Positions 666-34,059 of a DNA stretch of 64,000 nt are shown here, one piece after another (positions within the stretch are counted from its first letter, which is position 1; each line of letters begins with the position of its first letter). Source of the DNA: an uncultured Bacteroidales bacterium (GTDB lineage: Bacteria > Bacteroidota > Bacteroidia > Bacteroidales > VadinHA17); NCBI GenBank assembly GCA_963756885.1, contig CAVWPG010000007.1, positions 3,582 to 67,581 of the forward strand, given 5' to 3'. The position numbers were made by a program, and so were the translations under genes. Under the pieces are notes generated by a model. That model ran no database searches and was not told the origin of the DNA. It saw only the letters and a list, made by a program, of their open reading frames with translations.

Positions 666-3024
666 ATGAATTTTGAAGATAAGGCGGCCGGAGGTTTGGG
701 AAAGTATACTTCAGGAACCTCCAAAAGGAGATTTTATACTGCTCTGGCAGCGGCAGCAATTATTGTCGCTGTTGTGATCATCCAGGGCCAGCTGGGTAAA
801 AAGAGACCCCAGGACCCTGCGGACCTTGTAAATCCCCTTATGGGTACAGATTCGGAATATCAGGCTCTCAAACGGGAATACATATCCTGCAATTGCTCTG
901 CCATGGGGGATGAATTTCTGGACACCCCAGACACGAAAAATGGGAGATGGATGGGCCTATACTTATAATGATTACAAGATCATGGGGATAAAGCAGACCC
1001 ATCAGCCAAGTCCATGGATAAATGATTATGCGGCATTTTCCCTTATGCCTGTCACGGGAAGAATAAAAATCAAAGAGTCGGAAAGGGCTTCATGGTTCTC
1101 TCATAAGGCCGAGATTGCACGCCTTATTATTATAGTGTCTATCTTGCTGATTATGATGTTACTGCAGAGATAACTCCCACTGAAAGAGCAGCGATATTCA
1201 GCTTTACATTTCCTGAAAATGATTCCTCATTCATTCTGATTGATGGTTTCAATAAAGGATCCATGGTGAGAATAATACCTTCGGAAAGAAAAGTTATCGG
1301 TTACTGCCGTAATAACAGCGGAGGAGTACCTCCAAATTTTCATAATTATTTTGTTGCTGTATTTGACAAGGATTTTACCGGTACATCCACCTGGCATGGC
1401 GACACTCTCGATATTGGCAGGAATGAGTCGGAAGGTGATCATGCCGGAGCAGTCCTGGGTTTCAGAACCATAAGGGAGAAAAAATTACTGTGAAGGTAGC
1501 TTCATCATTTATTAGTCCTGAGCAGGCATTGATCAACCTGAACAGGGAGACAGGAGGGAAGGATTTTGAACAAATCAAAAATGAAGGCAGGGAGGCATGG
1601 AATAAACAGCTTGGCAGGATCGATGGTGGAGGGAGGAACAGCTGACCAGCAGAGAACGTTTTATTCATGTCTTTACCGGATGATCCTGTTTCCGCGGCAG
1701 TTCTATGAAGTAAATGGGAAAAATGAGATTGTGCATTACAGTCCCTACAACGGGGAGGTGCTTCCGGGATACATGTACACTGACAACGGCTTCTGGGATA
1801 CTTTCCGTGCACTCTTTCCCTTTCCTACCCTGATGTATCCCGATGTTGAACAGCAATATAATGGAAGGCCTGGCAAATACCTACAAGGAGAGCGGCTGGC
1901 TGCCGGAGTGGGCAAGTCCGGGTCATCGCGATTGCATGATCGGTTCCAATTCAGCCTCCCTCATTGCTGACTCCTATACTAAAAGGAATACGGGGTTACG
2001 ATATTGAGACCCTCTATCAGGCAATAATCAAGAATACAAAGGGAGTGGGCCCGGTTTCATCGGTTGGGAGACTCGGTGCAGAATATTATAACGAGCTGGG
2101 CTATGTCCCATATAATGTCGGGATAAATGAAAATACTGCACGTACCCTTGAGTATGCATATGATGATTTCTGTATCTGGAAGCTTGCAACGGAGCTTGGA
2201 AAGCCAGAAGAAGAGATTGATCTGTATGCCGGAAGGGCAATGAACTATAAGAATGTTTTTGATGAAGGCTAGAAGCTCATGAGGGGACGAAATCATGACG
2301 GCACCTTTCAGTCGCCTTTCAATCCTTATAAATGGGGAGATGCCTTCACTGAAGGTAACAGCTGGCACTACACCTGGAGTGTTTTTCAGGATGTTGCAGG
2401 GACTTGTTAACCTGATGGGAGGCAAGGGAAATTTCGTTGCGAAGCTCGATTCAGTATTTCATGTACCGCCTGTTTTCGATTATTCCTATTATGGTCAGGT
2501 TATCCATGAGATCCGCGAGATGCAGATCATGAATATGGGTAACTATGCTCATGGAAATCAGCCCATTCAGCATATGATATATCTTTACAATTATGCTGGC
2601 AGAACCATGGAAGACGCAATATCATGTAAGGGAAGTGATGGACAAGCTTTACAATTATACCCCTGATGGTTATTGCGGCGATGAAGATAACGGACAGACT
2701 TCGGCATGGTACGTATTTTCGGCCCTCGGCTTTTATCCTGTTACTCCGGGTACAGGTGAATATGTTATAGGATCCCCGTTATTCAATAAAGCCACATTAA
2801 GTTTCGAAAACGGCAAGCGACTCGTAATCAGGGCTCAGAAAAATTCAAGGGATAACATTTATGTACAGAGCATTAAGTTTAACGGGAAGCCTGTAGCTAA
2901 AAACTATATAAGCCACAGCGATCTTGTAAAGGGAGGGACACTAATATTCAATATGGGTCCGGTCCCTGACAAAAGCAGGGGAACAGGACCGGAATCATTC
3001 CCTTATTCGATGAGCAGTGAATAG
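666..3024 (+). pseudogene. GH92 alpha-mannosidase, multiply frameshifted
   Basis: Seven listed ORF pieces (666, 910, 1263, 1566, 1964, 2295, 2593) plus an unlisted frame-2 piece (about 1460-1640, KGEKITVKVASSFISPEQALINL...) read as consecutive parts of one GH92-type protein. Recognisable stretches include NPLMGTDS, QPSPWINDY, TFYSCLYRM, LEYAYDDFC, HGNQPIQHMIYLYNYAG and YCGDEDNGQTSAWYVFSALGFYPV. At least seven frame changes are needed. Confidence 0.75.
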
Positions 3025-3035
3025 GTTTCTGCAGC

Positions 3036-4225
3036 TTACAGCTTCAGCCTGATATTGATACTTCACAAGCAGGGCTGTCAGACCCACCATCAGCAGCGCC
3101 CAGGCAACCGATCCGGCTATTGCCACAAGCGGCATTCCAGACTGCTTGTAAATAAGAATGGGCAATCCTGTACTGAAAATAATATAATAGAGGATATCTG
3201 GTGCCAAGGTAAGTTGTAAGAGAATTTTCACCGGCAGGCTTCAGGAAAAAGGTCCATTTTGTTTTCTTCCGTATGTCGATTATCCAGTAAAGGAATGCAA
3301 AGAGAATCATGCTGATTCCGTTGCAAATAAGTCCCCAGCTTGGCGTTGCGCGGATTTTTGAAATTATAAACCATTTTCTGAGGACGAATCCGGCAGCGAT
3401 GCACAATACTCCAAGGGACACAATTGTAAGTATAGTCTTTCTGTGATCGGAAGAAAGTCTTTTCATTATTAAAGTTGTCAGCAATCCGGAGATTACAATA
3501 AATGGCACATTGCCATCAATTATAACTCCAAGAACCGGTTTTACGGGATCAAGGACATTGAGGAGTTCCAGCCTGGAAAGAATGTTCAGGGCCAGGAAGA
3601 AAAGCCAGGCCACAGCCGTATTGAGAATATTGTTGCGGGCCACCAGGTAAAGAAATGCCGAAACAAGATATCCCCAGCCAATGAGTCCGAGAATGCCCCA
3701 CCAGCCAGTAATAAGCGAACCGTTATTTGCCATTTGTCCAGATCTGAATTTGAATACAAGGAAAACAAGCAAAGCTATCCCGGCAAGCCTGAGACCTGAT
3801 ATTGTGAAGAAATTTCTTTCATTCTCGGTGTAATGGTTCCATATAAGAAATACCCCGATCAGCATGAGGATAGACCAGAGATTTTCACCCATTCCTGTCA
3901 GTTCTGCATTTACCCTGCCGGAATTCAGTGAAAGGACTCCTATAATCAGGAGGCTTACCGATCTGATTATTATATGTCTTACAATTGAGTAGGTACTTTC
4001 ACCTTTCCCGATCCTGTTGCCGATGGAGAAGGGGATTGCCATGCCAACCATGAATAGAAATCCAGGAAAAACCCAATCAGCCAGTCCCATGCCATCGAAG
4101 TCAGCTTTCATATGCCCCAGCCACGACGGAACTCCGGGCATATACAGGTCGTTGACAAACAGCATCAGGACCAGTGTCAGTCCCCTCATGATATCTATCG
4201 ATTGAATACGGTTGCTTTGTGTCAT
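3036..4225 (-). pseudogene. HGSNAT-like / DUF5009 membrane acyltransferase, two frameshifts near the 3' end
   Basis: The N-terminal ~330 aa are collinear with the intact paralog at 4251-5441 (MRGLTLVLMLFVNDLYMPGVP...). The C-terminus continues in ORF 2995-3231 (APDILYYIIF...VAIAGSVAWALLM). The last codons (INIRLKL-stop, stop at 3036-3038) match the paralog tail only in a third frame. Confidence 0.6.
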
Positions 4226-4250
4226 TTTAATGTCAGTATAAAGAATTTTC

Positions 4251-5441
4251 TTAAAGCTTGAGCCTGAAATTGATCCGTTGAAGCAGAACAGGAAGAGCTG
4301 CTCCCATCACAAGTGCCCAGGCAACCGACCCGGCTATCACAACCAGTGGAATAGCAGAATCCTTGTAAAAGAGCAGGGGCAGGCTGAACTGCCAGATAAT
4401 GTAATAGAACATATCCGGTACAAGATATACAGTCAGCGAGTTGGCGCCGGCAGGCTTCAGGAAGAGTCCCCATTTTATCTGCTTCCTGATATCAATTATC
4501 CAGTAGAGTAGTGCAAATAGGAGGGCGCTTATTCCATTGCAGATCAGCCCCCAGCTGGGAGTTGCCTGAATTTTTGAGATAATGAACCATTTTCGTAATA
4601 TGAATCCTGCAAGAAGCATTGCAATGCCAAGTGAAACGATTATCCCAAGGGTCTTCCCGTGATGCGCACCGGAAAGCTTTTTGAGAATAAGGGTCGTAAC
4701 CATTCCTGAGAGCACTATAAAAGGAGCATTGCCGTTGATAAGGACTCCGAGGACAGGTCTGACAGGGCTCAGAAAATCAAGAAGATGCAGTTTGGACAGA
4801 ATGTTAAGCGTGAGGAAGAAGACTATTGCCACTGCAGTTTTTGCTATATTGTTCCGGAAGCCAAGGTAGACGAATGCTGCCACAAGGTAGCCCCAGCCGA
4901 TTGTGCCAAGAATGCCCCATGATCGGAAGGAGAAGCCGTGAATTTCATCTTTCCCCGATCTGAAAATATAAACCATGACGAGGATCATGATTATTCCTGC
5001 GACCTTCAGAATATTGATTATAATGCTGTTCTTTTGTGTCACCTTATAGTCGTTCCAGATAAAAAAGACCCCCGTATACATTATCAGTGACCAGATATTT
5101 TTGGACAGGCCGGTAGCCTCTCCGTTGACATTCCTTGAATTTGCCATAAGCGCTCCGATTATAAGCAGGCTGAGGGTTCTGATCAGGATGTGCTGTGATA
5201 TCAGGGATGCTTTTTCTCCCCGGGAGATCCTGTTGCCTAAGGCGAAGGGGATAGCCATTCCAACCATGAACAGGAAGCCCGGGAAGACCCAGTCGGCGAG
5301 TCCCATTCCATCAAAGGTGGCTGCCCTGTGACCAAGCCAGGCCGGAACTCCCGGCATATAAAGATCGTTTACGAAAAGCATGAGTACGAGAGTGAGTCCT
5401 CGCATTATGTCTATCGAGTTAATACGGTTTGATTCGCTCAT
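4251..5441 (-). CDS. HGSNAT-like / DUF5009 family membrane acyltransferase (intact paralog)
   Basis: A 396-aa polytopic membrane protein. The N-terminal motif SIDIMRGLTLVLMLFVNDL is typical of the heparan-alpha-glucosaminide N-acetyltransferase-like family. It is a tandem paralog of the upstream copy. Confidence 0.7.
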   Translation of the reverse strand: MSESNRINSIDIMRGLTLVLMLFVNDLYMPGVPAWLGHRAATFDGMGLADWVFPGFLFMVGMAIPFALGNRISRGEKASLISQHILIRTLSLLIIGALMANSRNVNGEATGLSKNIWSLIMYTGVFFIWNDYKVTQKNSIIINILKVAGIIMILVMVYIFRSGKDEIHGFSFRSWGILGTIGWGYLVAAFVYLGFRNNIAKTAVAIVFFLTLNILSKLHLLDFLSPVRPVLGVLINGNAPFIVLSGMVTTLILKKLSGAHHGKTLGIIVSLGIAMLLAGFILRKWFIISKIQATPSWGLICNGISALLFALLYWIIDIRKQIKWGLFLKPAGANSLTVYLVPDMFYYIIWQFSLPLLFYKDSAIPLVVIAGSVAWALVMGAALPVLLQRINFRLKL

Positions 5442-16657: not shown

Positions 16658-16978
16658 ATGGAAATAAAGGAGAAGGTGAATGTTTATACCGAAAAGCAGG
16701 AAAAGATTGCCCGTTATTCCAAGGCGCTTGGGCATCCTGTAAGGGTGTATATAATGGATTTCCTCGTCAAGAATACCGACAAATGCTGTTATAGCGGCGA
16801 TATGGCTGAGGAACTGCCAATAGCCCGATCGACTCTCTCCCAGCATCTTAAGGAATTAAAGGAGGCCGGATTGATACAGGGTGAAATAAATCCCCCTTAT
16901 ATTAAATATTGTATAAATAAAGCAGGATGGGGCGAGGCCAAGGAGTTGCTCGGAGCCTTTTTTAACAGAAAATATTAA
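16658..16978 (+). CDS. arsR: ArsR/SmtB-family metalloregulator
   Basis: It has a winged-HTH signature (ALGHPVRVYIMDFL ... STLSQHLKELKEAGLI) and heads an arsenic gene cluster. Confidence 0.85.
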   Translation: MEIKEKVNVYTEKQEKIARYSKALGHPVRVYIMDFLVKNTDKCCYSGDMAEELPIARSTLSQHLKELKEAGLIQGEINPPYIKYCINKAGWGEAKELLGAFFNRKY

Positions 16979-16989
16979 ATGGATATATA

Positions 16990-17223
16990 ATGGAAATTAA
17001 AATTTTAGGTACCGGTTGTTCAAAATGCAAAACCCTCGAGGAAATTACGCGTAAAGTAGTAAGGGATAATGCTATCGATGCAAGCATCACAAAAGTTGAA
17101 GACATTGTTGAAATTATGAAATTCAACGTCATGACAACCCCCGCCCTGGTCGTTAACGAAAAGGTTGTATCGAGGGGACGCATTCCGTCAGCCGGTGAGA
17201 TAAAACAATTTTTAACAAAATAA
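16990..17223 (+). CDS. small thioredoxin-fold protein (redox-active disulfide protein 2 type)
   Basis: A 77-aa protein. MEIKILGTGCSKCKTLEE is the typical N-terminal CxxC pattern of this family. Confidence 0.8.
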   Translation: MEIKILGTGCSKCKTLEEITRKVVRDNAIDASITKVEDIVEIMKFNVMTTPALVVNEKVVSRGRIPSAGEIKQFLTK

Positions 17224-17233
17224 AAGACTGGAC

Positions 17234-17656
17234 ATGAGAAAATTCTTATTAATTAATTTTGTACTGATAACACTTGCCGGTTTTTCGGGCAGAGCCCAGA
17301 CAAGCCAAAAGCCGGCAACAACAGTTACAGGGAATGGCGATGTTGAAGTATATTACTTTCATATGACCATCCGGTGCACAACCTGCAAAACGGTTGAAGC
17401 TGAAGCCAGAAAGAATGTTGAAATGTTATATGCTGATCAGGTTAAGAGCGGTAAGATAAGTTTCACTGCTTTAAATCTTGAAGAGGCCACCGGAAAAGTA
17501 ATGGGAGAAAAGCTGGGCGTGAACGGTCAGACACTACTGATTGTTAAGGGGGACCAGAGGATCAATATTACGAATGAAGGTTTCCTCTATGCTGTTTCTC
17601 AGCCACAGAAATTTACTGAGGTTATGAAATCGAAAATTGATCCTCTGATTAAATAA
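17234..17656 (+). CDS. secreted CxxC protein of ars islands (possibly ArsF-family-like)
   Basis: It has a signal peptide and a CTTC motif, and sits between the thioredoxin-like and CcdA-like genes. The ArsF-family label is recollection only. Confidence 0.45.
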   Translation: MRKFLLINFVLITLAGFSGRAQTSQKPATTVTGNGDVEVYYFHMTIRCTTCKTVEAEARKNVEMLYADQVKSGKISFTALNLEEATGKVMGEKLGVNGQTLLIVKGDQRINITNEGFLYAVSQPQKFTEVMKSKIDPLIK

Positions 17657-17754
17657 ACGGGATGCTGGGTGCCAGGTCAAAGGTTCTCGGTACTTTGGCA
17701 CAGGGGACCAGGGAGCGAACACCAGGCAACCAGTCACAAGCAACAAGCGACCTG

Positions 17755-18453
17755 ATGGATTTTCTTACAAATCTTCTTGATAGTAGTTCCATGCCATGGG
17801 TTACAGCCTTGTTACTCGGTTTGATGACTGCTGTCAGTCCATGTCCGTTGGCAACTAACATTACGGCAGTCGGATTTATAAGCAAAGATCTGGAAAACCG
17901 CAACAGAGTCTTTTTCAACGGCTTGTTTTATACTCTTGGAAGAGCAATTTCATATACTTTAATTCCACTTGTAATTTATTTTGGAGCAGATCAGTTTAAA
18001 TTCTCAGGGTTCTTCCAGCTGTATGGAGAGAAAATCATCGGACCCCTGTTATTGTTAATCGGAATATTCATGCTAGATATCATCAGGATTAACCTGCCAG
18101 GTTTTGGCAGACTCTCTGAGAAAATGGAAAAGAGAAAGTCGTGGATGTTTATTGATGCCCTATTGCTGGGAATGCTTTTTGCCTTTGCTTTTTGCCCTTA
18201 CAGTGCAGTTCTTTATTTCGGAATGCTTGTTCCCTTAACCGTCTCAAGTGCTTCCGGACTCTATCTTCCAGTTGTATTTGCGATCGCAACCGGAATCCCT
18301 GTAATTATTATTGCATGGATGCTGGCTTATGCCATTTCAGGTTTGGGTGGCCTTTACAATAAGATAAAAATTTTCGAACTCTGGTTTAGAAGAGTAATCG
18401 CAGTAATCTTCATCATTGTTGGTCTTTATTACATATTCAGGATTTACATTTAA
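17755..18453 (+). CDS. DsbD/CcdA-superfamily membrane protein (ArsG-like transporter candidate)
   Basis: The likely start is ATG 17755 (MDFLTNLL...). It has the conserved TAVSPCPLATN motif and six predicted TM helices. Confidence 0.6.
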   Translation: MDFLTNLLDSSSMPWVTALLLGLMTAVSPCPLATNITAVGFISKDLENRNRVFFNGLFYTLGRAISYTLIPLVIYFGADQFKFSGFFQLYGEKIIGPLLLLIGIFMLDIIRINLPGFGRLSEKMEKRKSWMFIDALLLGMLFAFAFCPYSAVLYFGMLVPLTVSSASGLYLPVVFAIATGIPVIIIAWMLAYAISGLGGLYNKIKIFELWFRRVIAVIFIIVGLYYIFRIYI

Positions 18454-18468
18454 AAAATTTGTAAAATT

Positions 18469-18488
18469 ATTTCGTAATATGACGAAAT
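18469..18488. promoter_or_regulatory. palindrome ATTTCGT-N6-ACGAAAT overlapping the permease start codon
   Basis: It has perfect 7-bp arms and the same core as the site at 16629-16646. Confidence 0.4.
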
Positions 18489-19527
18489 GTCAATGCTTAT
18501 AGAAATGAAAAACATTAAAACAAATATCTGGTTACCTGTTGCATTGCTGCCAGTATGGTACCTGCTTTATCATAACCTTCAACCAGCGACCGACCTGGTA
18601 ATAGATTCGGTTTTCGGTATGACAAGGGGGGCACCTCTTACTGAAGCGGTGCGGTTTTTTGTTTTCGAATTTCCGAAGGTAATGATGCTTCTTACCCTCA
18701 TTATCTTCCTCGTTGGGATTATCAGGACATATTTCACCCCTGAGCGGACCCGTAAAGCACTTGAAGGCCGGAAGACGTTCACCGGCAATATAATGGCAGC
18801 AGCCCTCGGCATTGTGACTCCGTTTTGTTCATGCTCGGCAATCCCCTTGTTCCTTGGGTTTGTTGAAGCCGGGGTTCCACTGGGAGTCACATTTTCTTTT
18901 TTGATTTCATCACCAATGATCAATGAAGTTGCTGTTGTTCTTTTATATGGAATGTTTGGATGGAAGGTAGCAGCAATATATGTGGGTACAGGTTTGATTA
19001 TTGCAATTACTGCCGGATGGATAATTGGTTTACTCCGGCTTGAAAAATGGGTGGAACCATGGGTCTTCGAGACACATCTGGGTAACGGGAATGAGGAAGA
19101 AGAAAAAATAACATTCGGTTACAGAGTCGGTCTTGGTTATGATGCAATAAAAGATATTGTCGGTAAAGTATGGCTTTATGTAGCCTTAGGTATTGCTGTC
19201 GGAGCAGGCGCTCATGGTTATGTCCCGCAGGATTTTATGGTGGCCTTGATGGGCAAATCTGCATGGTATTCGGTTCCGTTATCAATATTAATAGGCATAC
19301 CGTTATATTCTAATGCAGCGGGAATAGTCCCAATTGTTTCAGTGCTTATCGAAAAAGGAGCAGCGCTGGGAACTTCCCTTGCGTTTATGATGGCAGTAAT
19401 TGGCTTGTCATTACCTGAAATGGTCATCCTGCGTAAGGTATTGAAGCTCCCGTTAATTTTTACATTTATAGGTGTGGTTGGATTAGGAATAATGATAGTG
19501 GGATATCTTTTCAATATTATTTTTTAA
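18487..19527 (+). CDS. COG0701-type permease (ArsP-like organoarsenical efflux permease candidate)
   Basis: A polytopic membrane protein with a TPFCSCSAIPLF cysteine motif characteristic of this permease family. It lies in an arsenic gene context. Confidence 0.65.
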   Translation: MSMLIEMKNIKTNIWLPVALLPVWYLLYHNLQPATDLVIDSVFGMTRGAPLTEAVRFFVFEFPKVMMLLTLIIFLVGIIRTYFTPERTRKALEGRKTFTGNIMAAALGIVTPFCSCSAIPLFLGFVEAGVPLGVTFSFLISSPMINEVAVVLLYGMFGWKVAAIYVGTGLIIAITAGWIIGLLRLEKWVEPWVFETHLGNGNEEEEKITFGYRVGLGYDAIKDIVGKVWLYVALGIAVGAGAHGYVPQDFMVALMGKSAWYSVPLSILIGIPLYSNAAGIVPIVSVLIEKGAALGTSLAFMMAVIGLSLPEMVILRKVLKLPLIFTFIGVVGLGIMIVGYLFNIIF

Positions 19528-24690: not shown

Positions 24691-25116
24691 ATGAAAATAC
24701 TAATATTATGCACGGGCAACAGTTGCCGCAGCCAGATGGCAAAGGGGTTTTTACAATCGTTTGACAAGAATCTGGATGTTCATTCGGCAGGAACAGAACC
24801 TGCGTCACAGATAAATCAAACTGCAGTAAAAGTAATGCACGAAGCCGGCATCGATATAAGCCGGAATGTTCCCAGGTCAGTTGATATCTACCTGAAGGAA
24901 GAATGGGAGTATGTTATAACTGTGTGCGATGATGCAAAAGAATCTTGCCCGTTTTTCTCAGGAAAAGTAAAACACAGGTTGCACATGGGGTTTGAAGATC
25001 CCTCACATGCTAAAGGTTCTGATGAATATATTCTAAGCGAGTTCCGACGAGTAAGGGACGAGATAAAAGATAGTTTTTTTACATTCTATACTACTCAAAT
25101 TAAACCACAATTATGA
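24691..25116 (+). CDS. arsC: arsenate reductase, LMW-PTPase (thioredoxin-coupled) type
   Basis: It has the CX5R P-loop MKILILCTGNSCRSQMA, plus downstream cysteines typical of the Trx-coupled ArsC family. Confidence 0.9.
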   Translation: MKILILCTGNSCRSQMAKGFLQSFDKNLDVHSAGTEPASQINQTAVKVMHEAGIDISRNVPRSVDIYLKEEWEYVITVCDDAKESCPFFSGKVKHRLHMGFEDPSHAKGSDEYILSEFRRVRDEIKDSFFTFYTTQIKPQL

Positions 25117-25916
25117 AAGCAGAAGATTTAAAACTAATAGTAAAGGAGAAATATGGTGAAATTGCTCAACAAAGCAATCCACAATCTTCATCATGCTGCG
25201 GAACATCATCATGTTGCTCAGGAGTTGATTACACAACATTCAGTGAAAGTTATGAAAATCTGAAGGGATATAATCCTGATGCAGACCTTAATCTTGGTTG
25301 CGGAATTCCAACAGAATATGCCCATATTAAAACTGGTGATACAGTTATTGACCTTGGTTCAGGAGCTGGAAATGACTGTTTCGTGGCCCGGTCGCTTGCC
25401 GGAGAGACAGGAAAGGTAATCGGGGTGGATATGACAGAAGCTATGATAAACAAAGCCAGGACAAATAATGATAAGCTCGGCTACAATAACGTTGAATTTC
25501 GGCTGGGTGATATTGAGGATATGCCCGTTTCAGAAAATTCGGCCGATGTCGTGATAAGCAATTGCGTCCTGAATCTTGTCCCGGATAAAAATAAGGCATT
25601 CAGCGAGATCTTCAGGATCTTAAAACCGGGGGGGCATTTATCCGTCTCTGATGTAGTGTTGCGAGGCACACTGGACAAAAAAATTCAGGATGCTGCTGAA
25701 ATGTATGCAGGCTGTGTTTCCGGGGCAATTGATATTGACCTGTACCTGGCTATTATGAAAGACTCGGGGCTCATCGGCATTAAAGTTCAGAAGGACAGGA
25801 TTATCATAATACCTGATGAGACATTATTGAATTACCTTGACAAGGCTGAACTGACGACTTTCAAAAAATCCGGCTCCGGCATATACAGCATAACAGTCTA
25901 TGCAGAAAAACCATAA
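25113..25916 (+). CDS. arsM: arsenite S-adenosylmethionine methyltransferase
   Basis: It has an N-terminal cysteine cluster (SSCCGTSSCCSG) and a SAM-binding motif (VIDLGSGAGND). It overlaps arsC by 4 bp. Confidence 0.85.
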   Translation: MKAEDLKLIVKEKYGEIAQQSNPQSSSCCGTSSCCSGVDYTTFSESYENLKGYNPDADLNLGCGIPTEYAHIKTGDTVIDLGSGAGNDCFVARSLAGETGKVIGVDMTEAMINKARTNNDKLGYNNVEFRLGDIEDMPVSENSADVVISNCVLNLVPDKNKAFSEIFRILKPGGHLSVSDVVLRGTLDKKIQDAAEMYAGCVSGAIDIDLYLAIMKDSGLIGIKVQKDRIIIIPDETLLNYLDKAELTTFKKSGSGIYSITVYAEKP

Positions 25917-25937
25917 TAAATATTAACCCATATATGT

Positions 25938-27017
25938 ATGAAAGCCCGACTGAAATTTGCCGACAGGTATCTGACCGTATGGATCTTCCTTGCAATGATT
26001 ATCGGAGTCTTTTCGGGATATTTCTTCCCGTCGGTTGCAACATTCTGGGATTCACTGAAATCATCTCCTGAGAGCACAACCAATATTCCTATTGCGATTG
26101 GTCTTATTCTGATGATGTATCCCCCTCTTGCAAAAGTTAAATATGATGAATTAGGGGGAGTATTCAGAAACTTTAAAATTCTGGGTCTCTCACTTGTGCA
26201 GAACTGGATAATAGGACCTGTGCTTATGTTTGCTCTTGCGATAGTATTCTTTAAGCTTTTCCCAGGAAAAGACAACGCAAATCTTCCGTATATGTACGGG
26301 ATCATAATGATTGGACTGGCTCGCTGTATAGCCATGGTGATAGTTTGGAACGATCTTGCCAGAGGAGATTCAGAATATTGTGCAGGACTGGTCGCATTCA
26401 ATTCAATCTTTCAGGTATTGCTTTTTTCGGTCTATGCATGGGTTTTTATAGCTGTTCTGCCGGGATGGTTTGGCGTACCTACAAATTCTGTTGTTGAGAA
26501 CATAACGATAAGCCAGATAGCGAAGAGCGTTTTTATTTATCTCGGAATACCGTTCATAGCAGGTTTTCTGACCCGGTTTATTTTGATCAGGGTCAGAAGC
26601 AGGGAATGGTATCAAACACGGTTTATTCCCAGGATCAGTCCCCTAACCCTGATAGCCTTACTCTTCACTATAATAGTAATGTTTTCCCTGAAAGGGGAGT
26701 ACATAGTAAAATTGCCTTTGGATGTTATAACGATCGCCGTGCCTCTTATAATTTATTTTGTCATCATGTTTATGTTCACCTTCTATATGAGCAGGAAGGC
26801 AGGTGCTACATATGGACAAACGGCTACGCTGTCGTTTACTGCTGCCAGCAATAATTTTGAGCTTGCCATAGCAGTTGCGATAGCCGTTTTCGGGTTAAAT
26901 TCAGGGGAAGCCTTTACCGCTGTGATCGGACCTCTGGTTGAGGTGCCCGTTATGATTGGGCTGGTAAATGTTGCCCTGGCTTTAAGGCGAAAATATTTTG
27001 CAGCGCAGGCAGGCTAA
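25938..27017 (+). CDS. acr3: ACR3-family arsenite efflux transporter
   Basis: The N-terminus ([20 protein letters not shown]), ten TM helices and conserved RCIAMV and ELAIAVAI segments are typical of ACR3. Confidence 0.9.
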
Positions 27018-27565: not shown

Positions 27566-28271
27566 ATGAACTCTGTTAAAAATCAAATTGCTGAGATTTC
27601 AATAAGAAAATCGGCTATAATCGCAGGGATTAGTCTTTTGTTTATGGCGATTATTGCACCGATCGCAAATTTTGCAATTATTCAAAAATTAATTGATTAT
27701 AATGATGCTGCGAAGACTGTTGGAAATATTGTCGCTTCCAACGGATTATTTCGTATTGGGATTGGTTTGTTTTTGATTGTTGCTTTGCTCGACATAATTG
27801 TTGCCTGGGCATTGTATGTTTTTCTGAAACCCATTAACAGGCAGTTATCATTGCTTACAGCATGGCTAAGGATAGTATATGCTACAATTTTAATCGCAGC
27901 TCCTTATTTATCTTCTGAATGTTTTGGCGCTTCTGAATGGGGCAGAATATCTATCTGGTTTTTCTACAGCTCAACTAAATTCACAGGTGATGATCTCCTT
28001 AAATATGTTTACCCGTGGCTGGGAATTCGGACTGATTGTCTTTGGTTTTCACTTATTGCTTCTGGGATACCTGATACTTAAAGCCGGATATATGCGTAAG
28101 ATCCTGGGATCTCTGATAATATTGGCAGCGTTGGGATATTTGATCGATGGTTTTGGCAAACTACTTTTAACTGATTACGGCATAAGCGTCAGTATGTTTA
28201 CTTTTATTGGTGAAGTGATACTTATATTTTGGCTGTTAATAAAAGGCAGAAAGATTGAAGCAAGGAAATAA
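27566..28271 (+). pseudogene. DUF4386-family membrane protein, one frameshift
   Basis: ORFs 27566-28081 and 27924-28271 together reproduce the DUF4386 layout (..AWLRIVYATIL.. then ..AEYLSGFSTAQLNSQVM..FGFHLLLLGYLILKAGYM..). A short direct duplication (cttctgaatg ... cttctgaatg, about 27912-27940) sits at the frame change. Confidence 0.6.
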
Positions 28272-28575: not shown

Positions 28576-29774
28576 ATGAGGAAGAAACAAAATGAAATCA
28601 TGCGTACACTCCTTAACTCACCAATCCTATCAGTTGCCGGGCTGGCTATCACGCTGACCCTGGGTTCCTCCTCCCTTGCCCAGCGCACTTCCGACCAGGA
28701 TTCACTTTCAAAAAACTCATCCCAATGGAACCAGGAAGAGCGTGAAGTGCCGAAGGGAAGAAAAGTGCACGAGCTTTCACAGGGATTGCCCATTGCCGCA
28801 TTTAGCGACAGGAGGAGAAAAAGAAAGAGCACTTGAAGATTTTCTGACTGAACAGAAAGTAGCCGGCCTCCTCATTTTACAGGATGGAAAGATCCGGTTG
28901 GAACGCTACGCTCTTGGGCACAGCGAATCCGGCCTATGGTCGTCACTGTCTGTTGCAAAGTCAGTAACGAGCACCCTCGTAGGGGCTGCCATCAAGGATG
29001 GTTACATCAAAAGTGTGGACGACTACGTAACGGACTACATCCCCGATTTAAAAGGGAGCGCCTACGAAAAAGTGACCATCCGCCATCTCCTCACCATGAC
29101 CACCGGTATACGATGGAACGAGAACTATACTGATCCGAATGCTGACATTGCCAGATTTTTTACAGATTCGGTAGAACCGGGCATGAATGCAACAGTAAGT
29201 TATATGCGACGTTTGCCGGCCGAGGCAGAACCTGGCAAAAAATGGGTGTATAGTACAGGTGAAACTCACCTGCTGGGTGTCCTTGTCAGCTCAGCTACCC
29301 ATCAAACGTTATCCCACTACCTTTCCTCGAAGATCTGGATTCCTTACGGTATGGAGCAGAAGGCCACCTGGACCCTGGATCGAACTGGTCAGGAATTGGC
29401 AGGCTGTTGCCTCCAGATGACGCTCCGTGATTTCGCAAGGTTCGGACAATTTGTTCTCGAAGACGGACGCATTAACGGGGAATCCATTGTTCCCGATGAT
29501 TGGTTCAAGACAGCGACCCATATACAAGTGCCGCTTTGGCCCGGTGGGGGCTATGGATACGGTTGGTGGATCTTTAATGGCAGTAGCTTTCGAGGCATTA
29601 GGGATCCATGGCCAGATGATCCATATCGACCCTGCGAGGCGACTGGTGATTGCAGTCAACAGTGCATGGCCTGAGGCTGAGAGTAACGAGCGACATTTAG
29701 CTGTCGCCAATTTTGTGAAAACCATTACTGACGAGATTGATAAAGAGAAAAAAGATCGCCTGAGCCATAATTAA
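28576..29774 (+). pseudogene. beta-lactamase-family serine hydrolase, two frameshifts
   Basis: The signal peptide is in ORF 28576-28836. The catalytic core, with SxxK (SVAKSVTSTLVGAAI), is in ORF 28676-29674. The C-terminal end (ALGIHGQMIHIDPARRLVIAVNSAWP) is in ORF 29427-29774. Confidence 0.65.
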
Positions 29775-29868: not shown

Positions 29869-29869
29869 G

Positions 29870-29942
29870 TCGGGGTGAGAAGACTCGAACTTCCGGCCTC
29901 TACGTCCCGAACGTAGCGCGCTACCAACTGCGCCACACCCCG
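29870..29942 (-). tRNA. tRNA-Pro (anticodon CGG)
   Basis: The reverse complement folds as a cloverleaf. The acceptor stem is CGGGGTG/CACCCCG and the D arm is GCGC-AGTTGGTA-GCGC. The anticodon stem CTACG/CGTAG carries loop TTCGGGA (anticodon CGG). The T arm is GGAAG-TTCGAGT-CTTCT. Confidence 0.9.
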
Positions 29943-29981: not shown

Positions 29982-30176
29982 AAGATTTTTTACCAATGGC
30001 AGTAATAACATGGCATTTCATTGCCTTTAAGTCAGGAAGCTTTCGGATCATAGCTAGGCCAGGTCACTGATACTGCCCAAGTGCTGCCTGCATGCCGTCC
30101 AAACCTTTTCAGCAAAATTTATTACCCGGTTAATTTTTATTCAGACCTTAAATTACTACTGATGAGTTTAATTGAA

Positions 30177-32770
30177 GTCAAACTCCTCCAGGGTTAACAC
30201 ATCAATTAAACCAATAAATCATAGAACATTTGTATTCAATTCATTATCAATAAAAACATATCTCTGAATTTATTGCAACATTGGTATTTAAAAACCTTAT
30301 TTTCTTCCTCCACTTTAGTAGAAAATGTCCCCCAAAGTCCCTCAACCTTATTACCTTATTCAGGATTAATAGTTTTTTGGTGGAAATTATCGCCTGATAT
30401 TCAAGATTATACAGATCCGACCATTCATAAGAGCTTGTTTCAGGAAAGCATAAAATTTCAACAACCGGTACGTATATTTCTGTTTTTGCCAAAAATTAAA
30501 TATTCCGGTGCCCTGCACCTTTGGCCCTAAGATTGACTATTTTTTCTACAAATATTTCGCAGCTCTGCTGCTTTGCATCCGAACTATAAAGTTCAGATCG
30601 CCTGAAACCTGAAAATAATTGCTTGCACTTAAGAGCTTAAGGTGCAGAGCACCAAAATATCTGTAGCAATGTATTGTAGAATGATTAAAGGTGCAGAGCA
30701 CCGGAATATTCGTCGAAGTTCATTCTTCACCCCTTAAGGGTTACAGGTGGGTTTTCCTGTCTTTACCGTGGGTTGGACCCACGGTTATTCATTTCAAACC
30801 CCTCCAGTGTTAACACATCAATTAAACCAATAAATCATAGAACATTTGTATTCAATTCATTATCAATAAAAACATATCTCTGAATTTATTGCAACATTGG
30901 TATTTAAAAACCATATTTTCTTCCTCCACTTTAGTAGAAAATGTCCCCCAAAGTCCCTCAACCTTATTACCTTATTCAGGATTAATAGTTTTTTGGTGGA
31001 AATTATCGCCTGATATTCAAGATTATACAGATCCGACCATTCATAAGAGCTTGTTTCAGGAAAGCATAAAATTTCAACAACCGGTACGTATATTTCTGTT
31101 TTTGCCAAAAATTAAATATTCCGGTGCCCTGCACCTTTGGCCCTAAGATTGACTATTTTTTCTACAAATATTTCGCAGCTCTGCTGCTTTGCATCCGAAC
31201 TATAAAGTTCAGATCGCCTGAAACCTGAAAATAATTGCTTGCACTTAAGAGCTTAAGGTGCAGAGCACCAAAATATCTGTAGCAATGTATTGTAGAATGA
31301 TTAAAGGTGCAGAGCACCGGAATATTCGTCGAAGTTCATTCTTCACCCCTTCAGGGTTACAGGTGGGTTTTCCTGTCTTTACCGTGGGTTGGACCCACGG
31401 TTATTCAGATCAAACCCCTTCAGGGTTAACACATCAATTAAACCAATAAATCATAGAACATTTGTATTCAATTCATTATCAATAAAAACATATCTCTGAA
31501 TTTATTGCAACATTGGTATTTAAAAACCATATTTTCTTCCTCCACTTTAGTAGAAAATGTCCCCCAAAGTCCCTCAACCTTATTACCTTATTCAGGATTA
31601 ATAGTTTTTTGGTGGAAATTATCGCCTGATATTCAAGATTATACAGATCCGACCATTCATAAGAGCTTATTTCAGGAAAGCATAAAATTTCAACAACCGG
31701 TACGTATATTTCTGTTTTTGCCAAAAATTAAATATTCCGGTGCCCTGCACCTTTGGCCCTAAGATTGACTATTTTTTCTACAAATATTTCGCAGCTCTGC
31801 TGCTTTGCATCCGAACTATAAAGTTCAGATCGCCTGAAACCTGAAAATAATTGCTTGCACTTAAGAGCTTAAGGTGCAGAGCACCAAAATATCTGTAGCA
31901 ATGTATTGTAGAATGATTAAAGGTGCAGAGCACCGGAATATTCGTCGAAGTTCATTCTTCACCCCTTCAGGGTTACAGGTGGGTTTTCCTGTCTTTACCG
32001 TGGGTTGGACCCACGGTTATTCATTTCAAACCCCTCCAGGGTTAACACATCAATTAAACCAATAAATCATAGAACATTTGTATTCAATTCATTATCAATA
32101 AAAACATATCTCTGAATTTATTGCAACATTGGTATTTAAAAACCTTATTTTCTTCCTCCACTTTAGTAGAAAATGTCCCCCAAAGTCCCTCAACCTTATT
32201 ACCTTATTCAGGATTAATAGTTTTTTGGTGGAAATTATCGCCTGATATTCAAGATTATACAGATCCGACCATTCATAAGAGCTTGTTTCAGGAAAGCATA
32301 AAATTTCAACAACCGGTACGTATATTTCTGTTTTTGCCAAAAATTAAATATTCCGGTGCCCTGCACCTTTGGCCCTAAGATTGACTATTTTTTCTACAAA
32401 TATTTCGCAGCTCTGCTGCTTTGCATCCGAACTATAAAGTTCAGATCGCCTGAAACCTGAAAATAATTGCTTGCACTTAAGAGCTTAAGGTGCAGAGCAC
32501 CAAAATATCTGTAGCAATGTATTGTAGAATGATTAAAGGTGCAGAGCACCGGAATATTCGTCGAAGTTCATTCTTCACCCCTTCAGGGTTACAGGTGGGT
32601 TTTCCTGTCTTTACTGTGGGTTGCACCCACGGTTATTCAAATCAAACCCCTTCGGGGTTAACGCATCAATTAAATCAATAAAACCAAAAACACTTATATT
32701 CAATATATTATCAATAAAATAAAAATATATTTCTCTTGTTAATGCCTCATTGGTAATCTTAAATACTAAC
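30177..32770 (+). repeat. tandem array of a 616-bp non-coding unit: 4 near-identical copies plus a diverged partial 5th
   Basis: Copies span 30177-30792, 30793-31408, 31409-32024 and 32025-32640, with the diverged partial copy at 32641 to about 32770. The GTTAAC landmark sits at 30193, 30809, 31425, 32041 and 32657, exactly 616 bp apart. There are no indels and about ten variable positions by eye. Confidence 0.95.
30499..30710. repeat. 24-bp long-range inverted repeat module inside each 616-bp unit (first copy given; others at +616, +1232, +1848)
   Basis: aatattccggtgccctgcaccttt (30499-30522) pairs with aaaggtgcagagcaccggaatatt (30687-30710) with one mismatch and a 164-nt spacer. An extra direct copy of the right-arm core, aaggtgcagagcacc, lies at 30639-30653. 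Confidence 0.85.
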
Positions 32771-32778
32771 TTTAAATT

Positions 32779-34059
32779 ATGGAAAATCCAGTAAAAATCT
32801 GCATTGCCTGCCTCGTCCTTTGTACTGCAATGGGATGTACAAGCGAATTTCATCCAATAAAAAAGCTCAACGGCATGGTTGAGGGGGAAAAATTCGGTGA
32901 CCTCTTCACTGAACTGTCTGTCAACAGGAATGCGTATAACCCGGAATCGATAATTTATTACGATCTGATACTGAAGTCGGTACTGAACCAGCCTGAGGAA
33001 TCGAACACGCTGATCCAAAAATTCCGTGACCAATTCAGTAAATTCAGCGACACTGCAGATTATAATCTGGTTCAGACCGAATATTATAATAACCTGAAGT
33101 TGCTTGACTATAAAAAGCTGAAAGATTTAAGCAGGAATCTGATCGATAATTACAAACAATTCATTGATTCCGGCGATTTCGTCGAATTGAAGGATGACAA
33201 TATTGCATATGGGTACCTGGAGAATGAGCCGCCTACACGGGTAATAAAGGAGGGAGACACTGAAATAAAGATTAAGAAGGATCTCGCCGGGTATAATCTG
33301 CTTCGCGTGAAAAGCAATAACGACTCTACCGTAAGTATGATTTTCGATACAGGCGCCAATGTGAATGTAGTAAGCGAATCAACCGCAGAAAAATTAAATC
33401 TCAGGATAATTCCAGGGGCGGTAGTTTATGTAATGGGCTCTACAGGCACACGCAATGCCTCAAAAATTGCCATTGCCGATCAGGGATCCATCGAAAATAT
33501 AGGATTTCAGCATGCTGAATTCATTGTTTTTGCCGATAGTCTGCTCTCGTTTGCCAACGGGAGATACAAGATCAACGGGGTAATTGGTTTCCCTTTTATC
33601 ATGCGCTTCGAATCCATCCGGTTTACCGATTCCCTCATTTATATTCCAAAGAATCCTGAAGCCGGATCCGGTATTCCCAACCTGTTCATCAAGGGTGATG
33701 ATTATATAATTGATGTTGCCTATAAAAACAAGATCCTCCCTTTCTTCTTTGATACAGGTAATTCAAATACAAGCTTTTACAGCAACATGTACGATGCAGA
33801 TCCGGAGTATTTCAAAACGCTGAAAGACACTGTTTTTGCCTATTCAAGCGTGGGAGGCACAATTACACAGAAAGCCAAGCTGTTGCCTGAGATCAGGCTT
33901 GAATGCGGATCAAAAAGCTTCGTTCTAACAAACACATTTATTGCGCTCGGCAAGAATTTATTAAACCCCGATCTCTACGGCAATATAGGTAAGGATTTTG
34001 TAAATCAATATAAATCAATTACAATGTGCTTTAAGTACGGGTATATTGATTTTGAATAG
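32779..34059 (+). CDS. lipoprotein with two retropepsin-like aspartyl protease domains
   Basis: It has a lipobox-like signal (LVLCTAMGCTSE) and two DTG active-site motifs (MIFDTGANVNVV and FFFDTGNSNTSF) about 130 aa apart. This is consistent with a pseudo-dimeric retropepsin-like fold. Confidence 0.6.
   Translation: MENPVKICIACLVLCTAMGCTSEFHPIKKLNGMVEGEKFGDLFTELSVNRNAYNPESIIYYDLILKSVLNQPEESNTLIQKFRDQFSKFSDTADYNLVQTEYYNNLKLLDYKKLKDLSRNLIDNYKQFIDSGDFVELKDDNIAYGYLENEPPTRVIKEGDTEIKIKKDLAGYNLLRVKSNNDSTVSMIFDTGANVNVVSESTAEKLNLRIIPGAVVYVMGSTGTRNASKIAIADQGSIENIGFQHAEFIVFADSLLSFANGRYKINGVIGFPFIMRFESIRFTDSLIYIPKNPEAGSGIPNLFIKGDDYIIDVAYKNKILPFFFDTGNSNTSFYSNMYDADPEYFKTLKDTVFAYSSVGGTITQKAKLLPEIRLECGSKSFVLTNTFIALGKNLLNPDLYGNIGKDFVNQYKSITMCFKYGYIDFE

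Follow-up and report, generated by a model that had tools for sequence, protein, structure and literature searches.

Introduction

The closest described relatives of the element reported here are the repetitive extragenic palindromic (REP) sequences of Proteobacteria, together with their composite forms, the bacterial interspersed mosaic elements (BIMEs) and REPINs (REP doublets forming hairpins), and the tyrosine transposases associated with REPs (RAYTs, or TnpA-REP). These systems consist of short hairpin repeats with a conserved GTAG that occur singly, as inverted pairs or in clusters. The repeats are dispersed between genes, and inverted copies flank a single gene for a Y1 transposase of the HUH type. 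According to a published rule set the tag lies 0-2 nt 5' of a stem of 7-20 bp (PMC6006769). Moreover, REP clusters can be reiterated tandemly along with flanking DNA (PMC3733652). In the literature that we searched, REP/RAYT systems come almost entirely from Proteobacteria and Cyanobacteria. Here we analysed a stretch of 64,000 nucleotides from an uncultured Bacteroidales bacterium (GenBank assembly GCA_963756885.1, contig CAVWPG010000007.1, positions 3,582 to 67,581 of the forward strand), referred to as the window, in which a 616-bp unit is repeated head to tail between a tRNA-Pro gene and a protease gene. An earlier note on this DNA, made from the sequence alone, had described the array as structured and non-coding and could not assign it to any family. 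We found that its 24-nt inverted repeat and its hairpins belong to a repeat family that is dispersed in Bacteroidota. The array is probably a lineage-specific tandem amplification, in situ, of a non-coding intergenic segment of about 616 bp carrying a REP/BIME-like cluster comparable to BIMEs and REPINs.

Results

Four copies in exact register and a diverged edge

The array consists of the following parts, given in window coordinates.

30171..32634, no strand: four full units, spaced 616/616/616
32635..32766, no strand: fifth copy, partial and diverged, unit offsets 0 to ~125 (repeat search and gapped alignment)
30787..30811, no strand: hypervariable unit junction, a T-rich tail followed by the hairpin AACCCCTCCAGGGTT ending in GTTAAC (from the list of variable columns)

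A repeat search and a column-by-column comparison delimited the four copies at 30171-30786, 30787-31402, 31403-32018 and 32019-32634. They are 98-99% identical, with 11 variable columns and no indels, and the sequence GTTAAC stands at 30193 and again every 616 bp. This agrees with the geometry given in the earlier note (four copies in exact register, about ten variable positions, no indels, the GTTAAC landmark and a diverged partial fifth copy). Tandem Repeats Finder returned no rows because its longest period is 500. The fifth copy shows 82% identity across its first 85 nt in the repeat search, and its homology reaches unit offset ~125, at window position ~32766, once one 5-nt indel is allowed. 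It ends 13 nt before the ATG of the protease gene (32779) and doubles as the direct upstream region of that gene; the stretch just before the protease gene recurs at offsets 0-125 of each unit (gapped alignment). Head-to-tail copies in register, with 98-99% identity in the interior against 82% at the edge, are the pattern of a satellite-like tandem under concerted evolution. Of the three explanations considered before, satellite-like DNA maintained by concerted evolution came nearest to our conclusion.

The substitutions are not spread evenly. Among the interior copies four of the eight variable positions lie at unit offsets 5-21 (30176-30192 in copy 1 and the same offsets in every copy), where they affect the T-rich tail as well as the junction hairpin, in both its loop and its stem. 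Such clustering was matched by only 72 of 20000 random placements.

An assembly artefact, in which one or two copies were expanded or a longer array collapsed, would also yield a tandem of this kind. The contigs of this family are apparently metagenome assemblies with many split genes, which suggests an error-prone long-read assembly. The four copies nevertheless have distinct combinations of substitutions and no indels, unlike a duplicated consensus or homopolymer errors, and comparable arrays occur in independent assemblies (L085 and L067; L numbers denote sequences from other genomes). We therefore regard an artefact as decidedly unlikely.

A nested cluster of REP-like modules forms the core of the unit

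The conserved core of the unit (offsets ~322-548) is a nested cluster, or palindrome, of four REP-like modules. As the criterion for a REP we used a palindromic stem-loop with a GTAG or GTGG tag adjacent to the stem. The basic module, as read from the matches at other loci, is a hairpin (stem of 5 bp, loop AGA) followed by G, a single base and AATATTTGTAG(AA). In copy 1 the elements lie as follows and recur in every copy.

30499..30522, minus strand: module M1, left arm of the 24-nt inverted repeat, hairpin GGTGC-AGG-GCACC with a degenerate tail (further copies at +616, +1232 and +1848)
30544..30571, minus strand: module M2, hairpin GCAGC-AGA-GCTGC with the perfect tail G.AATATTTGTAGAA (exact tail match)
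30639..30668, plus strand: module M3, GGTGC-AGA-GCACC with the tail AAAATATCTGTAGCA
30687..30717, plus strand: module M4, GGTGC-AGA-GCACC with a degenerate tail, right arm of the 24-nt inverted repeat
30729..30785, plus strand: block of GC-rich hairpins (3' end of the unit, offsets 558-616; terminator prediction and repeat search)

The arms of the inverted repeat (30499-30522 and 30687-30710) are 96% complementary and enclose 164 nt, in line with the 24-bp inverted repeat reported before. They have the core GGTGCAGRGCACC in common with a third half-site. Module M2 was also found in L085, L089 and L109. Folded as single-stranded DNA the cluster reaches -41.7 kcal/mol (z = -6.4), and the whole unit folded as RNA gives z = -4.5, so that the hairpin-rich character ascribed to the unit is borne out. 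The predicted stability stems from the inverted repeats themselves. Besides, the GC-rich block contains a terminator-like stem-loop, ACCGTGGGT-TGG-ACCCACGGT, followed by TATTCATTT (30765-30785 plus tail), and the 15-mer ACCCCTTCAGGGTTA is repeated at a distance of 69 nt (repeat search).

The modules belong to a repeat family dispersed across Bacteroidota

We scanned a collection with one genome per species for the strict two-module pattern GGTGCAGRGCACC-N25-45-GGTGCAGRGCACC. The scan yielded at least 119 loci against about 0.01 expected by chance according to our arithmetic; locus counts given from here on are among the matches listed. Nearly all loci are from Bacteroidota (Bacteroidales, Prolixibacteraceae, Saprospiraceae, Dyadobacter and Chitinophaga), and four or five separate loci each were present in OW818663.1, JBBSDC01, CBDUZZ01 and JBBACY01. 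The cultured Dyadobacter strains L036, L054, L068, L082, L107 and L112 carry the family as well; L068 is D. koreensis DSM 19938. A search with nhmmer using the whole unit gave 201 matches on these loci in both orientations, nearly all limited to offsets ~322-548, the region bounded by the arms of the inverted repeat. The core is thus conserved in other genomes, and the rest of the unit is mostly without a match.

The hairpin was tested independently of the search pattern on 300 tails in the loci. A perfect 5-bp hairpin lies exactly 2 nt upstream of 174 tails and 3 nt upstream of 41 more, while at most other registers about 1% of the tails have one. The stems GGTGC/GCACC, GCGGC/GCCGC, GCAGC/GCTGC, GCTAC/GTAGC and GGGAC/GTCCC are interchangeable and the loop is constantly AGA. 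Since the two sides of the stem vary together by covariation, the hairpin itself, as single-stranded DNA or RNA, is what is conserved.

Many loci contain simple arrays of 50-56-nt modules. Outside Bacteroidota the 13-mer hairpin core was seen in 51-nt tandem repeats followed by GCAATAT in the Firmicute Cohnella cholangitidis (L014:3700-4060), and in 57-nt tandem repeats in metagenome-assembled genomes (MAGs) of Anaerolineales and Planctomycetota (L037 and L043). A literature search for the 13-mer core returned only unrelated matches from cancer biology.

The unit-specific 28-mer had no match in the metagenomes of the Joint Genome Institute (JGI). A broader 33-nt pattern found three contigs there with the cluster and none with the 616-bp array. 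The unit was likewise without a match in collections of plasmids and phages.

In other genomes the modules flank an IS200-like Y1 transposase gene

In several loci the modules adjoin an open reading frame of about 155 aa that starts with MANTYTQ and contains MPDHIHI. It belongs to the Pfam family Y1_Tnp (E = 8e-28 for a full-length example). Such a protein is encoded in 21 of the 119 loci, each locus being at most 8 kb long (tblastn and Pfam). About 1.7 copies per genome have been reported for this type of Y1 (PMC6006769), and the gene would be enriched at module loci by well over an order of magnitude.

Modules lie directly beside the gene in 13 of the 15 full-length cases and on both sides in 11. 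Upstream of the ATG there are forward modules at a distance of 27-130 nt. Inverted modules follow 14-45 nt behind the protein match, whose end is a few codons short of the stop codon. This order of forward module, gene and inverted module is the layout described for REP-associated transposase genes (REPtron). Y1 loci with adjoining modules, usually inverted on both sides, are L011, L025, L029, L046, L047, L049 and L058, and further ones are L061, L076, L078, L101, L104, L113 and L116. The earlier note had seen neither a transposase nor a terminal-inverted-repeat architecture. For the family as a whole this does not hold, because in other genomes its members flank an IS200-like Y1 gene in inverted orientation.

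In its motifs (DHIH, WQ and Y(I)xxQxxHH) the protein fits subclass 1.2 as defined by Quentin et al. 2018 (PMC6006769). Against NCBIfam it scores 71 bits for the IS200/IS605 TnpA model (cut-off 55) and 27.1 bits for REP_Tyr_transpos (cut-off 80). The protein is thus no canonical class 2 RAYT or TnpA-REP, its REP_Tyr_transpos score being below the cut-off and its motifs those of class 1. The nearest solved structures are those of ISDra2 and the Sulfolobus TnpA. Judged by these sequence features, the modules and the Y1 enzyme would form a system resembling REP/RAYT, with a protein outside the canonical RAYT family.

A relic of the transposase gene between the modules of the array was sought and rejected. 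With a profile of 15 Y1 proteins the best E in a six-frame hmmsearch was 0.7, outside the array, and with a DNA profile of the genes it was 0.6. One nhmmer alignment placed unit offsets 245-330 against the antisense 5' end of the gene in L047. We consider it an over-extension from the adjacent module, because the protein and DNA profiles of Y1 found nothing.

A yjbR relic and comparable arrays in other genomes

Apart from the modules, each unit contains a gene fragment.

30419..30451, plus strand: remnant of a yjbR-type gene, its last 11 codons reading DHS*ELVSGKH and interrupted by a stop (tblastn with YjbR of L085); in every copy

The corresponding peptide in L085, a Bacteroidales MAG, is DHSYDLITGKH. 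The relic is supported by a shuffle test (p = 0.001) and by nhmmer with a profile of yjbR 3' ends (E = 2e-4). We also considered whether the whole unit could be a decayed yjbR and rejected this, as only the last 11 codons are supported, the collinear matches TLVFK and KC.P are not significant and Pfam found nothing.

Unit offsets 248-546 are about 70% identical to a tandem array in L085. The units of that array measure 432, 483 and 534 bp and differ by whole 51-nt modules. It starts inside an intact yjbR (Pfam YjbR, E = 3e-34), and every unit has the last ~32 codons of yjbR. In the JGI contig L127 the order is yjbR, another open reading frame, a module cluster and a yjbR fragment. A junction of TTAAAAAC with CATATGAATAAAAA, by which codon ~71 of yjbR is fused to the spacer that follows the cluster, is common to L085:1548-3370 and L127:120-1400. 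The duplication is therefore old and shared by those two lineages, which points to inheritance by both and a later expansion in L085. The window unit and the L085 junction share the 13-nt exact match TTAAAAACCATAT. As its significance is p = 0.03-0.08, we rejected a duplication junction common to the window and L085/L127.

Comparable long-period arrays around these modules recur in other genomes. L067 has three intergenic 422-bp units around module clusters, and L054, L016 and L098 have units of 190-270 bp containing modules.

The array is missing in the closest available relative

The neighbours of the array correspond to those named in the earlier note, a tRNA-Pro gene on the minus strand and a lipoprotein protease gene on the plus strand.

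29869..29942, minus strand: tRNA-Pro(CGG), left neighbour (tRNA and Rfam searches); the array starts 229 nt upstream of it
32779..34059, plus strand: gene for a retropepsin-like aspartyl-protease lipoprotein of 426 aa, right neighbour (Asp_protease_2, E = 1e-11)

In L120, the closest relative available, the protease orthologue is 83% identical and the downstream genes are kept (glyoxalase, ERG4-like, SDR, GH30 and penicillin-binding protein). The distance from tRNA-Pro(CGG) to the protease is 351 nt in L120, without array and without module, compared with 2836 nt in the window. By our arithmetic, 2836 nt minus four units leaves 372 nt, near the spacing in L120. On the tRNA side, L120 and the window are homologous over the tRNA and a further ~100 nt, and on the protease side over the last ~30 nt ahead of the ATG. 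The array is absent, too, from L121-L124, whose orthologues are more distant, and is specific to its lineage.

A non-coding unit without a match to known RNA families

The 616-bp unit is non-coding. Its 81-aa and 85-aa open reading frames overlap on opposite strands and both start with TTG, which is consistent with the earlier description (overlapping frames with non-ATG starts and no credible coding). Pfam returned nothing for either frame or for three-frame translations of unit offsets 60-300, and the frames of the array are absent from a collection of 15 billion proteins, although the neighbouring protease is present there (P0001, a 394-aa form, 100% identical and apparently from the same contig). 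The yjbR relic is the sole coding trace in the unit.

A structured RNA was considered next to this. The unit could be a functional gene or regulatory cassette, such as a small RNA ending at the terminator-like hairpin, or the array could separate the tRNA-Pro promoter from the protease gene as stacked terminators or insulators. The strong predicted structure of the unit as RNA (z = -4.5) is in keeping with such a role, as are the terminator-like stem-loop with its T-rich tail at the plus-strand 3' end and the copy of the protease upstream region with which every unit begins. Terminator-like sites were predicted in copies 1 and 3. At the gathering threshold of Rfam, however, only tRNA-Pro scores, and at E up to 10 the array gives merely eukaryotic snoRNA models far below threshold, so no known RNA family matches the unit. 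The -7 promoter consensus of Bacteroidota is TAnnTTTG. An exact TAnnTTTG box is absent from both strands of the unit and from the 164-bp segment within the inverted repeat, and a sigma-70 promoter scan gave no excess compared with shuffled sequence. Moreover, only the palindromic modules and the gene relic are conserved elsewhere, in both orientations, the predicted stability comes from the inverted repeats themselves, and the array is missing in relatives that retain the flanking genes. A functional cassette is therefore quite unlikely in our judgement, and the former suggestion of non-coding RNA genes with AT-rich leaders finds no support in the promoter and conservation results. Any effect of the additional terminator-like hairpins on the downstream gene would be incidental, and the array points to no new cellular function.

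A phase-variable inverton, in which a recombinase flips the 164-bp segment between the 24-nt inverted repeats, would explain the inverted repeat, whose length and spacing are within the range for Bacteroidales invertons. We found neither a promoter box inside the segment nor a recombinase gene at 14-47 kb of the window. The arms belong to a hairpin family that flanks a Y1 transposase gene and not an invertase gene, and all four copies have a single orientation. Consequently an inverton is highly improbable, and the invertible cassette formerly proposed is not supported. The in-situ amplification is more likely than a functional RNA array, an inverton or an assembly artefact.

Two further classes were tried and rejected. 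That the array is not a CRISPR was already stated in the earlier note and holds, since the period of 616 bp compares with repeats of 24-48 nt, the 'spacers' are identical and no cas-type domain was found among the neighbours scanned. For an integron cassette or attC cluster we looked for RYYYAAC and GTTRRRY cores and an IntI integrase. The junction GTTAACA breaks GTTRRRY at position 6 (read from the sequence), and no integrase was present at 14-47 kb.

Neighbouring genes

The open reading frames at 14-47 kb are ordinary chromosomal genes according to Pfam, including an arsenic-resistance cluster, a TetR regulator, a GH30 hydrolase, PBP1a and a peroxiredoxin, among others. No recombinase, transposase or integrase gene was found among them in the Pfam scans. 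One arsenic-resistance group lies at 16658-19527 (ArsR-type regulator, DsbD-like protein and ArsP-type permease) and a second at 24691-27017 (ArsC-type phosphatase, ArsM-type methyltransferase and ACR3-type carrier); they are ordinary chromosomal context of the array. The N-terminus of the protease is lipoprotein-like as judged from its sequence, and all 96 homologues have identical domain content.

Two decayed genes had been noted to the left of the array. The split reading frames are real; they are not specific to the array locus. The GH92 gene is in at least three pieces (1581-3024), and DUF4386 in two pieces and a beta-lactamase-family gene lie at 27566-28271 and 28576-29774. Since GH92 is far from the array, split genes are not a property of the array locus. 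Contigs of relatives (L120) carry similar splits, and the 'decayed genes' may be frameshift errors of long-read assembly rather than true pseudogenes. Besides, two adjacent paralogues of 393 and 396 aa on the minus strand (3044-5441) have nearly identical N-termini (MTQSNRIQSIDIMRGLTLV... and MSESNRINSIDIMRGLTLV...). The pair looks like a tandem gene duplication unconnected to the array.

Discussion

How such an array might have formed can be outlined from its parts. The amplified segment has at its core a four-module nested cluster of the Bacteroidota-wide family, associated in trans with the subclass 1.2 IS200-like Y1 (HUH) transposase. It would also hold relics of the surroundings of the cluster, namely the yjbR 3' end, the GC-rich hairpin block and the ~125-nt copy of the protease upstream region. 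After an initial duplication, the number of copies may have grown through unequal homologous recombination or replication slippage between the 616-bp copies, and gene conversion would hold the interior copies at 98-99% identity while the edge copy drifts to 82%. Unequal recombination or slippage would thus account for near-identical interior copies next to a diverged edge copy. The hairpin repeats probably promote the amplification, either by stalling replication or as substrates of the Y1 enzyme.

Several observations weigh against this account. Simple unequal crossing-over gives no account of the clustering of substitutions at the unit junction. The outer boundaries of the array lie in an AT-rich 'J' segment and not in the palindromes, and therefore the repeats are not demonstrably the points of joining. 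No collection searched contains a homologue of offsets 0-247 or 549-616, roughly half the unit. Neither the 64-kb window nor the array contains a Y1 gene or a relic of one (tblastn, six-frame profile and DNA profile), so that the evidence tying the array to the enzyme comes from other genomes. Within the 64 kb of the window copies of the module are confined to the array, and dispersal is shown by other genomes; the copy number of four is as assembled.

The unit might instead be a non-autonomous mobile element with REP-like ends, in which ~420 nt of captured DNA replace the gene. A Y1 HUH enzyme would then have copied it in tandem, either inserting it repeatedly beside its own end or synthesising it in rolling-circle fashion from a nicked hairpin. 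Along the array the modules follow the order 'forward, forward - 420 nt - inverted', which corresponds to that seen around the transposase genes. The yjbR relic and the cluster stand in a different genomic context in L085 and L127, and the orthologous locus of L120 is empty. The clustering of substitutions at the junction and the 13-nt match to the L085 junction would fit as well. This match is not significant, however, and no relic of a transposase lies between the modules. The intact yjbR directly beside the array in L085 and L127 fits an in-situ duplication, the boundaries of the array are not at modules, and we know of no report of tandem insertion by IS200/IS605-type enzymes. We consider such an element unlikely and keep it under consideration on account of the clustered substitutions and the 'forward - 420 nt - inverted' order. 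It is quite unlikely that the unit represents an undescribed class of module-bounded non-autonomous elements with captured host fragments, copied head to tail by a subclass 1.2 HUH enzyme through nicking of single-stranded DNA and rolling-circle-type synthesis or through self-targeted insertion. If true, this would be a transposase-driven route to satellite-like arrays in bacteria.

With the in-situ amplification as the preferred explanation, a puzzling structured non-coding array becomes part of a phylum-wide hairpin-repeat system tied to an IS200-like Y1 transposase. If the association holds, Bacteroidota would have a REP-like family that could serve in strain typing, help to recognise intergenic repeats at which assemblies break, and aid work on domesticated HUH enzymes. 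Experiments are feasible, as cultured Dyadobacter strains carry the family. Such clusters can seed tandem repeats with long periods (430-616 bp) in several genomes, and the array offers a small, testable example of bacterial concerted evolution.

Invertons of Bacteroidales are similar in having inverted repeats of ~20-30 nt around a segment of a few hundred bp; the present locus differs in that it has no nearby invertase and no promoter box and that its arms come from a dispersed hairpin family. The intergenic mosaic elements of Neisseria (dRS3/RS) consist of short inverted repeats alternating with longer repeat blocks in intergenic arrays. Set apart here by description, they have unrelated repeat sequences, units of 50-150 bp and a different type of recombinase. 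With IS200/IS605 elements and their miniature derivatives, the palindrome-associated transposable elements (PATEs), the modules share the Y1 family of Pfam and NCBIfam and subterminal hairpins at both ends. In contrast to these elements, the modules far outnumber the gene, the window is without the gene and the unit of the array has no coding capacity.

The associated protein is like the TnpA-Y1 of subclass 1.2 in its motifs (DH[IV]H, WQ and Y---Q--HH), its length of ~150 aa and its occurrence in Bacteroidetes (PMC6006769). That subclass was listed with 'no' associated secondary structures or hairpins (PMC6006769), whereas here 13 of 15 full-length genes adjoin modules, 11 of them on both sides. 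Compared with REPs, the modules have a shorter stem, of 5 bp, and their GTAG, though conserved, is placed ~10 nt 3' of the hairpin rather than 0-2 nt 5' of it. The host belongs to Bacteroidota, and the protein scores as IS200/IS605 TnpA and not as REP_Tyr_transpos. The reiterated unit, at 616 bp, differs from REP clusters in that about two thirds of it are sequence from outside the repeat family. In the literature that we searched no paper links these repeats to Bacteroidota, and the repeat family and its connection to a subclass 1.2 Y1 appear to be undescribed there. The array itself is not a new class; it is a large-period case of tandemly reiterated REP-type clusters.

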